Shown here: piece by piece, positions 55,564 to 55,958 of the stretch | Position numbering within the stretch: position 1 is the stretch's first letter | Layout: the number at the start of each line of letters is the position of its first letter | Virus record (IMG/VR): IMGVR_UViG_3300035698_014118 | Coordinates: 14,190 to 78,189 of that record | Source: a virus | Reading direction: 5' to 3' (one strand) | DNA length: 64,000 nt | The notes under the pieces: generated by a model | Told to the model about the DNA's origin: nothing | The model's database searches: none | The model's input: only the letters and a program-made list of their open reading frames with translations | Program-made: the position numbers and the translations under genes

Positions 55564-55776
55564 ATGAAAGCTAGAGACCATCTTTATGTAACGCCTAATA
55601 CAAAAGAAGATTGGATAGAGAATCATTGGAAAAATCGGTCTCTCGATTTTTTGCAATTTATATTTAGTGTATCTAGAGATTGCCAACAAAAAACTTGGAT
55701 TGGTGAGTATATAGAATCTCGCTTACAATCAGAAGGTTATGAAAACCATCTAACATGGAAAGATATAGCAATATGA
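55564..55776 (+). CDS. W-tag mini-protein
   Basis: Ends LTWKDIAI. Confidence 0.6.
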   Translation: MKARDHLYVTPNTKEDWIENHWKNRSLDFLQFIFSVSRDCQQKTWIGEYIESRLQSEGYENHLTWKDIAI

Positions 55777-55958
55777 ACGGCCATATGCCAATAAGAAGTG
55801 ATATAACAGTAATACCCGGTTCTTGTTCTAAAAAGAAATTAAATTGGAAAATCACAGAAACAGTAGGAATGGTTATTATAAACGATGCTGCCATAGAAAC
55901 GATAGATTTTTATTCTGGTGATCCTCTACATCTATACTGGGAGGATATGACTATATAA
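55773..55958 (+). CDS. W-tag mini-protein homologous to the MCP C-terminus
   Basis: PIRSDITVIP..VGMVIINDAAI; ends LYWEDMTI. Confidence 0.8.
   Translation: MNGHMPIRSDITVIPGSCSKKKLNWKITETVGMVIINDAAIETIDFYSGDPLHLYWEDMTI

Follow-up and report, generated by a model that had tools for sequence, protein, structure and literature searches.

Why would a salt-lake jumbo phage with an intact gene for its major capsid protein (MCP) carry, further downstream, a second and very small gene that consists largely of a diverged copy of the end of the first? This question is raised by positions 55773-55958 of a 64,000-nucleotide stretch of virus DNA, hereafter the window, which is contained in a 78-kb virus contig (IMG/VR record IMGVR_UViG_3300035698_014118, positions 14,190 to 78,189). 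The small gene, to which we refer as the mini-gene, belongs to an array of open reading frames (ORFs), all 31 of which lie on the plus strand and end with the pattern [FL]-x-W-x-x-[IM]-x-[IV]-stop. We call this pattern the tail, the ORFs that have it tagged, and the part of each protein that precedes it the cargo (Table 1).

The similarity of the mini-gene product to the MCP is far beyond chance. In a pairwise BLASTP alignment of its residues 3-44 with MCP residues 241-283, 23 of 43 positions are identical, with one single-residue gap and an E value of 1e-12. The E value was 2e-10 when all ORFs of the 78-kb contig were searched, and tblastn with the MCP against the 22 kb downstream returned the cargo region with an E value of 1e-8. 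A preliminary description of this DNA, made from its letters, had read the mini-gene as a diverged copy of the MCP C-terminus followed by the tag of the array, LYWEDMTI, and had named alignment statistics as a check; with the values given above, this reading stands. The mini-gene product also matched the phrog_2522 profile weakly, at positions 272-312 of 318. The complete MCP fold (N-arm, E-loop, P-domain and A-domain, about 280-290 aa) is not present in it, as the 61-aa protein corresponds to MCP residues 241-288 only, and 13 of the 31 columns that are strongly constrained in MCPs are altered, including Q247, V265, Y267, E269 and Y278. The mini-gene is a derivative of the phrog_2522/gp27 family, and not a member of it.

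The resident MCP itself, the 289-aa product of ORF 41133-42002, matched phrog_2522 with an E value of 1.4e-65, shares 55% identity with gp27 of Bacillus phage G (497 kb), and matched the solved gp27 chain of PDB entry 6WKK (E 4.5e-96). A gp26-like protein is encoded nearby, at 40481-41050. At least 114 relatives of the phage are represented in IMG/VR; the 80 that were kept have MCPs 69-91% identical to it, and several of them are on contigs of 460-548 kb. The layout of the mini-gene is that of the array: it lies on the same strand as its neighbors and is tiled with them, the next tagged start coming 12 nt past its stop codon. As the next gene has an AAGGAG of its own, the LYWEDMTI tail is not needed there as a ribosome-binding site. 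By our own estimate, a random 61-codon frame of this base composition would be open about 1% of the time.

Table 1. Coordinates of the mini-gene, its parts and related features in the window (aa, amino acids; nt, nucleotides).
Feature	Position	Strand	Basis or remark
Resident MCP gene, phage-G gp27 type, intact, 289 aa; paralogue of the mini-gene cargo	41133..42002	+	phrog_2522, gp27 and 6WKK matches
Array of 31 tagged mini-ORFs among tRNA genes, homing endonucleases, a NUDIX gene and a split UDP-glucose dehydrogenase	48389..62721	+	
Tagged mini-ORF, weak similarity to gp23 N-terminal VQPM motif	48532..48723	+	
Tagged mini-ORF, T4-type gp23 C-terminal cargo; 37.5% identity over 48 aa to PX29 gp23 residues 448-495, pairwise E 1.5e-6	49230..49412	+	
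Second tagged mini-ORF with own-type MCP cargo (residues 64-95, 40% identity over 32 aa)	50704..50832	+	
Homing endonuclease of the LAGLIDADG type, within or next to tRNA-Leu and 235 nt ahead of the mini-gene	54738..55538	+	
Upstream tagged ORF, tail LTWKDIAI; its last codons contain the purine-rich stretch and form the ATGA overlap at which the mini-gene starts	55564..55776	+	Sequence
Mini-gene, 61 codons plus TAA (55956-55958)	55773..55958	+	ATG at 55773 overlaps the TGA of the upstream tagged ORF (55774-55776)
MCP-like cargo, homologous to MCP residues 241-288, the last exon of the relatives' fractured MCP genes	55779..55919	+	BLASTP, tblastn, alignment of mini-ORFs
C-terminal tail LYWEDMTI, an example of [FL]xWxx[IM]x[IV]-stop	55932..55955	+	Sequence
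AAGGAG, 7-nt spacer and ATG of the next tagged ORF (55970-56164)	55957..55972	+	Sequence

Homologues, age and conservation of the capsid-derived piece

The mini-gene is not the only small ORF with this piece of the capsid gene. When 1.84 billion representative proteins were searched with phmmer, eight small proteins with the same piece were returned (P0007, P0028, P0011, P0020, P0022, P0023, P0025 and P0029), all of which sit on short ENA or Logan contigs; the search also returned repetitive proteins with many matched stretches, the one inspected (P0026) being a run of near-identical repeats. A ninth further mini-ORF, the sole metagenome match, was found on the 1.3-kb contig Ga0180433_10279664 (1-1323; L082). 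On this contig, four mini-ORFs with ATGA overlaps follow a terminator-like hairpin and form a second kind of mini-gene array, and two of them embed MCP residues 242-285 and 89-119, in non-collinear order, between an MKW[FI]K leader and a PPYIYPxLR tail. The tail of P0011 is related to the latter type, and P0007 (...YLEWEDI) and P0028 (FRWKLIAI) end in the tryptophan-containing tail (W-tail) of our array. Thus, the same capsid exon occurs in at least two unrelated tail contexts. The cargos themselves are not uniform either: P0029 joins MCP residues 43-57 directly to 242-285, and in P0023 (117 aa, on an ENA contig), the MCP last-exon piece is fused to a P-loop fragment of the EF-Tu type (KLTVGTIGHQGHGKTTL; Pfam GTP_EFTU, E 3.9e-5). 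This EF-Tu-type part is curious beside the EF-Tu-binding Gol peptide of phage T4 (see below), but we claim no link between the two. A word-indexed search for homologues of similar length returned the mini-protein itself only, and scans of IMG/VR with the mini-gene, P0007 and two further array proteins gave no match.

The divergence of the mini-gene from its parent type is large. Its identity to the resident MCP gene at the first, second and third codon positions is 23, 31 and 12 of 44, respectively, the third positions being at the random level; overall, about 50% of nucleotides and 53% of amino acids are identical. The GC content at third codon positions (GC3) of the mini-gene is 0.26, close to that of the array (0.28) and of large genes (0.22-0.29), and that of the MCP gene is 0.42. 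The random third positions, together with a GC3 at the genome level, indicate that the copy has long resided in this AT-rich genome under little codon selection. The same segment is almost invariant in the MCPs of the 80 relatives (GAFPIRQDITVLPADDPKKLRLGWVIYEEVG...), whose identities to the mini-gene are 42-56%. When the mini-gene was compared with 50,697 phage records, gp27 of phage G was its sole significant match (E 1e-3, 44% identity), the other 19 records being noise with E >= 2. The mini-gene shares with the G-type clade the sequence GW.I.E, keeping R.DITV.P and W.I.E..G; the distant MCPs LR745208 and Tunturi_5 have GFS[VI]FE.

A phylogeny against the MCPs of relatives had been proposed in the preliminary description as a further check. 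In a tree built on 45 columns, all mini-ORFs fell within the G-type MCP clade, with 99/98 support against the outgroups, and the branch of the window copy was 1.36 long compared with a median of 0.13. By this tree, the mini-gene descends from an MCP of the phage-G type and has evolved about 10 times faster than any MCP. The closest MCP among the 80 IMG/VR relatives, phage G and 1.8 billion representatives is about 56% identical to it, and its nearest relatives are other mini-ORFs. As judged from these identities, the sampled MCPs include no plausible recent donor. Because its nearest relatives are mini-ORFs and not MCPs, the mini-gene looks like an old lineage that evolves separately rather than like a recent capture from a related phage, which had been offered earlier as one of two explanations for its divergence.

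The other explanation offered was selection, since the frame is intact. This part has fared better: in addition to the open frame, site-specific conservation in the ten mini-ORFs favors selection on the peptide. None of the ten, the window copy included, deviates at R, D-I-T, P, W, I, E, G or N, which in MCP numbering are R246, D248-T250, P253, W264, I266, E268, G271 and N276. At other sites that are invariant in MCPs, replacements recur: V after W is changed to K or R in 6 of 10 mini-ORFs, the next Y is changed in 7 of 10, E269 is replaced with T in 4 of 10, and the Y of NDYA with A, C or S in 6 of 10. The strand GWVIYEE has retained every second residue (W, I and E), with polar substitutes for V, Y and E, as would be expected if one face still bound a partner and the other, buried in the full MCP, were now exposed. 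With changes placed at random in each sequence, 1.7 invariant columns of 31 would be expected in the ten mini-ORFs, compared with the 10 observed (P<5e-5); with the five most divergent mini-ORFs, the expectation is 3.8 as against 10 (P 1.5e-4). As similar capsid-end mini-genes recur in other metagenomic phages, the mini-gene looks kept rather than accidental. The AlphaFold2 model of the MCP was weak in the relevant region (pLDDT, the predicted confidence score, 56 overall; strands 240-251, 265-275 and 280-286 of low confidence), and therefore the placement of the piece on the P-domain hairpin rests on general knowledge of the HK97 fold.

Fractured capsid genes and the tagged array

Where the piece may have come from is suggested by the state of capsid genes in this clade. 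A search for short proteins that match the MCP gave 359 matches, and the ends of these MCP-derived ORFs (proteins P0032-P0151) cluster at about residues 32/33, 43-55, 113-123, 196, 213/214 and 245/246. Thus, P0080 and P0106 read ...VGAFP[IV] and then continue with unrelated sequence, and P0054 stops at GAFPI. In the loci L078 (8677-12802), L066 and L067 (8751-10771), the MCP is split after residue 32; the insertion in L078 holds a LAGLIDADG endonuclease ORF, and two more endonuclease ORFs follow right after the MCP stop codon. Rfam, used at gathering thresholds, detected no group I intron in the split loci L078 and L066. Together, the splits, the clustered ends and the inserted endonuclease gene show that mobile insertions break up MCP genes in this clade. 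The cargo of the ten aligned mini-ORFs starts within about 4 residues of the GAFPI|RQDITV break and runs to the MCP C-terminus, as would a copy of the last exon. Further pieces match break points as well, namely in L082 (ending ...FYIVDR), P0029 (starting at 43) and P0025 (ending at 195), which makes intron and endonuclease traffic the likely source. An origin of the mini-gene cargo as a copy of the last MCP exon, made by way of such traffic, is thus likely from the positions of these edges.

The LAGLIDADG gene that lies upstream of the mini-gene sits in tRNA-Leu and is unrelated to the endonucleases at the MCP genes of relatives, and the parent MCP is 13.8 kb away. Given this difference, there is no specific element to blame. 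The same ORF overlaps an intact tRNA-Leu(CAA) gene (54927-55000), and a second copy of the tRNA 3' end is found at 55539-55562, just past its stop codon.

Capsid-derived cargo is also found elsewhere in the array. The product of ORF 49230-49412, apart from its alignment with gp23 of PX29, matched Pfam Gp23 (E 0.011) and about 400 mostly T4-like records, and the weak VQPM match of ORF 48532-48723 falls in the same gp23-type gene of LR756511, collinear with the fragment in 49230-49412. When the rest of the contig and the complete relative G003 (460 kb) were searched in six frames, the MCP proved to be the only non-endonuclease protein present merely as a partial piece under a tagged ORF at E<1e-3. 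There were two such pieces, at 55779-55919 and 50698-50793, each of them in the sense frame; other genes gave no fragments in antisense or out of frame in that search. Comparison of about 30 array proteins with Pfam and PHROGs gave only noise, except for two Gp23 matches. The tagged ORFs that flank the mini-gene (55564 and 55970) had noise-level matches only, and no source could be detected for the remaining cargos, these two neighbors included. The preliminary description had taken the array to be built from capsid-gene fragments. This goes too far: going by detectable similarity, capsid fragments are enriched in the array but make up about 4 of its 31 members, two with own-type MCP cargo (55773 and 50704) and two of the gp23 type, of which 49230 is well supported and 48532 weakly.

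Several candidate assignments were dropped. No match was found for ORF 48914, which had been considered terminase-like; ORF 50704, considered helicase-like, proved to be MCP-derived; and matches to the MCP N-terminus at 48514 and 51046 were too weak to keep (E ~0.9). ESM Atlas gave nothing usable for ORF 56468. The tagged mini-ORFs 50376-50552 and 50962-51171 have the sequence ...G(V/I)..GWF[LV]W, which also occurs inside a Cys-rich ORF of G003 (350708-350992; motif GVQSGWFLWPANFDP, E 0.005), and their tail Trp may derive from that gene. The longer array members (90-138 aa; 60392-62128 of the window and 33395-36837 of the contig G011 described below) have a loose C-terminal pattern, ...A..[AC]C..[IL]......FxWxxMx[IV]. 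Adjacent longer members (60894 and 61197; 56166 and 56468) are detectably paralogous, which suggests that parts of the array grew by tandem duplication followed by fast divergence.

The tail is the property that all members of the array have in common. Its strict DNA form occurs 14 times, compared with 0.02 occurrences expected by chance. The tail bases often double as a purine-rich stretch and as the ATGA start of the next ORF, and the tail is kept also before tRNA genes and where the next gene owns an AAGGAG. The codons vary (TTT/TTC, ATA/ATT/ATC/ATG, GAT/GAC, GAA/GAG) while the residue classes are fixed. The codon variation with fixed residue classes and the persistence before tRNAs point to selection on the tail peptide. 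None of the large proteins of the contig ends in it. A further jumbo-phage contig of 147 kb, G011 (IMGVR_UViG_3300035698_019437), has about 29 W-tail ORFs in two clusters (2375-10471 and 32014-37832; loci L142, L179 and L188-L190). The surroundings of the first cluster include 9 tRNA genes and endonucleases of the HNH or GIY-YIG kind, and cargo of the MCP type was not detected on this contig.

Possible roles of the mini-gene

We tentatively favor the reading that the last-exon copy is kept as a translated peptide that mimics the capsid and bears a shared docking tail, which we regard as quite possible, if short of probable. Introns and homing endonucleases break the MCP genes of relatives at recurrent points, one of them GAFPI|RQDITV, and the piece downstream of this point would be copied out of the capsid gene by mobile-element traffic. 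The copy would be joined in frame to the 3' module of the array, Phi-x-W-x-[DEN]-[IM]-x-[IV]-stop, often together with the start of the next gene, and would then evolve as a small translated gene of its own. The peptide keeps one face of the terminal beta-hairpin of the MCP (R, DIT, P, W-I-E, G and N), and residues buried in the full MCP have turned polar (V to K, Y to T, E to T). Such a mimic would be a hairpin on its own, probably intrinsically unfolded, and would bind some partner of the most conserved MCP segment; candidates are a host capsid sensor, an assembly factor or, in a co-infecting phage, another capsid subunit. Through the common tail, all array proteins would share one property, e.g., docking to a common partner. 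The origin of the piece is well supported by the comparisons and the constraint on it reasonably so, and from these we infer translation, binding and a decoy or interference role. In a broader form, environmental jumbo phages would keep libraries of tagged peptides from conserved capsid exons, of their own and of T4-like types, in islands of tRNA and endonuclease genes as capsid mimics. These would blind host sensors or poison the capsid assembly of co-infecting phages, with the octapeptide docking all of them to one partner and mobile introns and endonucleases supplying the peptides; this generalization we consider doubtful.

Several observations weigh against the mimic reading. The mini-ORFs were found by their similarity to the window copy, which favors columns shared with the MCP and biases the conservation test, and the ten mini-ORFs are not independent lineages. 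The AlphaFold2 model of the mini-protein, built on a 10-row alignment, had a pLDDT of 48 and no confident fold. The mini-gene was not found within 10 kb of the MCP gene in the 80 relatives, and the tail pattern was found neither in phage G nor in five complete relatives, so that they are not needed for this type of capsid. Moreover, the MCP segment is invariant in this phage and in its relatives, and a binder could therefore not separate the phage's own capsid from that of a competitor. Finally, hitch-hiking of endonucleases and introns alone would also produce an enrichment of MCP pieces, including those of the foreign gp23 type, as capsid genes are preferred homes of such elements.

It is on this last point that the main rival, a neutral explanation, builds. 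The mini-gene would then be a by-product with no capsid-related function, a displaced or hitch-hiking last exon left as debris of intron and endonuclease traffic, which is open because it is short, because it is young in this form, or because it is a translated spacer that carries ribosomes downstream. Such traffic would account for the capsid-gene enrichment and fits the heavy fracturing of the MCP genes, with their recurrent break points and 359 short derivatives, and the endonucleases in and right after them and throughout the array. The ATGA overlaps suggest translational coupling, and the lack of the mini-gene in all sampled relatives, its unstructured model and the ascertainment bias of the conservation test are also in line with a by-product. 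We nevertheless find this explanation rather unlikely, since more than half of the amino acids and the open frame were kept while GC3 drifted fully to the genome background. Conservation is, besides, concentrated in 10 columns, the same MCP-invariant positions were replaced repeatedly, one exon is found with two unrelated tails, and both robust own-type fragments are in the sense frame. If the cargo were arbitrary and the tail the only functional part, the octapeptide might load small proteins into the very large capsid (cf. the T4 capsid-targeting sequence) or serve as a degradation or docking signal, the MCP part being interchangeable filler. The 31 otherwise unrelated ORFs that share the tail alone, the further 29 or so in G011, the synonymous variation with fixed residue classes, and the presence of the tail before tRNAs and before genes with their own ribosome-binding sites would all be accounted for. 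This would leave unexplained, though, why MCP-specific residues are retained in the cargo and why the same exon occurs with another tail; the tail also has no known partner and is absent from large proteins of the contig, and on balance we consider this improbable.

Two further explanations were weighed. A radical SAM gene (47380-48360; domain E 1.7e-21) ends 28 nt before the first tagged ORF. Its protein belongs to a MoaA/PqqE/SPASM-like group with a Cys-rich C-terminus, and its nearest curated models, all far below cut-offs, include MoaA, PqqE and peptide maturases such as StsB, MftC, PapB and SkfB. The tail with its invariant Trp could thus be imagined as the substrate motif of this enzyme, and the mini-gene as one of about 31 precursors of ribosomally synthesized and post-translationally modified peptides. 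However, the two do not go together in the other genomes compared: the G003 orthologue (57% identical), a neighbor of another radical SAM gene, lacks tagged ORFs nearby as well as genome-wide, and in G011 only endonuclease-like large plus-strand ORFs, which were not run against family libraries, directly precede the tail clusters. As a perfect 19-bp hairpin (48342-48382) also separates the enzyme gene from the array, the link is unlikely, and the N-terminal parts of the tagged proteins are mutually unrelated, unlike leader peptides, so that we hold this explanation to be very improbable. We give almost no credence to the mini-gene being a working part of the capsid gene, namely a reserve or alternative final exon which splicing or recombination would attach to the MCP, so that a variant capsid protein results. 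Although its left edge falls at a true interruption point of MCP genes, the phage has an intact MCP of its own, many genes and tRNAs lie in between, the nucleotide identity is too low for homologous exchange, residues invariant in all functional MCPs are changed, and the piece has its own start and an added tail.

Should the tagged ORFs be capsid mimics, they would represent a new class of counter-defense or of inter-phage weapon, and would show selfish introns and endonucleases in essential genes feeding new genes to the phage. Even without a function, the data show that the capsid genes of a widespread clade of phages of about 0.5 Mb are fractured at recurrent sites and that capsid exons live on at other places as small tagged ORFs. 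Both points bear on annotation and on the origins of small phage genes.

Known systems and genomic surroundings

The internal-protein loci of T-even phages are hypervariable and hold unrelated small genes that share only a short terminal peptide. The array resembles them in being composed of unrelated small genes with a common short terminal peptide. However, the tag of internal proteins is N-terminal, is cleaved by the prohead protease and serves head loading, whereas here it is C-terminal, is shared by about 31 members, and is attached to cargo that includes capsid fragments. A second comparison is with the mobile promoter and stem-loop cassettes (PeSLs) and hyperplastic regions of T4-type phages, where small ORFs are reported to be shuffled between short conserved junctions (PMC2839356, PMC4122927). 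In both cases, small ORFs alternate with short conserved junction sequences in variable regions, but PeSLs are non-coding promoter-terminator motifs, and the junction in our array (tail, stop and next start) is coding and conserved as protein.

Mobile elements in capsid genes and tRNA clusters have precedents. Earlier reports describe introns in the capsid genes of Cluster J mycobacteriophages (PMC3706429), homing by SegB in the tRNA cluster of T4 (PMC2330249), and SegB-driven amplification of anti-defense loci (PMC13096335). The split MCP genes and the position of the array among tRNAs and endonucleases are similar, but these systems, as reported there, do not include exon copies living on at other sites as tagged mini-genes with an evolution of their own.

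The closest parallel to a capsid piece that is active alone is the Gol peptide of T4 gp23, 29 residues that bind EF-Tu and trigger the Lit protease (PMC3014915). As in that case, a short and most conserved stretch of a capsid protein would be the active part. Gol, however, lies within the full capsid protein, while the mini-gene is a stand-alone, diverged gene with a tail, and the capsid lineage and the region of the fold differ. The homology to full-length HK97-fold MCPs (gp27, 6WKK) is clear over the last 45 residues or so, but about 84% of the protein is missing (N-arm, E-loop, spine helix and A-domain) and MCP-invariant residues are replaced; lacking this much, the mini-protein could not form a capsomer. 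Capsid proteins are now known to be among the main triggers of bacterial immunity, with CapRel, Avs7/8/10, Thoeris, the cyclic-oligonucleotide-based antiphage signaling system (CBASS) and Lit as examples (PMC13581612, PMC13728456, PMC3014915). In a November 2026 review of phage counter-measures (PMC13728456), the word "decoy" appears once, in the title of a reference on cyclic nucleotides, and none of the six passages on capsids there describes a phage-encoded capsid-fragment decoy.

Near-identical DNA is present in salt-lake metagenomes of 2017-2019. Other copies of the mini-gene were found only in two salt-lake runs of 2017 and are identical to 55773-55958; there was no RNA run among the sequencing runs that matched the region. 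The sequencing-run contigs across the region are of low depth, and many joints there have sides of 20-28 nt at tRNA-like repeats. Downstream of the MCP gene, the contig has 21 tRNA genes and several homing endonucleases. A UDP-glucose dehydrogenase-like gene (51831-54067) appears to be split, with an endonuclease-like ORF (53010-53777, with a Phage_endo_I-like C-terminus) between the halves. ORF 45744-46640 encodes a protein of 298 aa whose N-terminus has a methylation motif of the prepilin type (Pfam N_methyl) and whose C-terminus has an H-X9-DG-like motif, an architecture that we take to be typical of Planctomycetota and their relatives and that may hint at the host.

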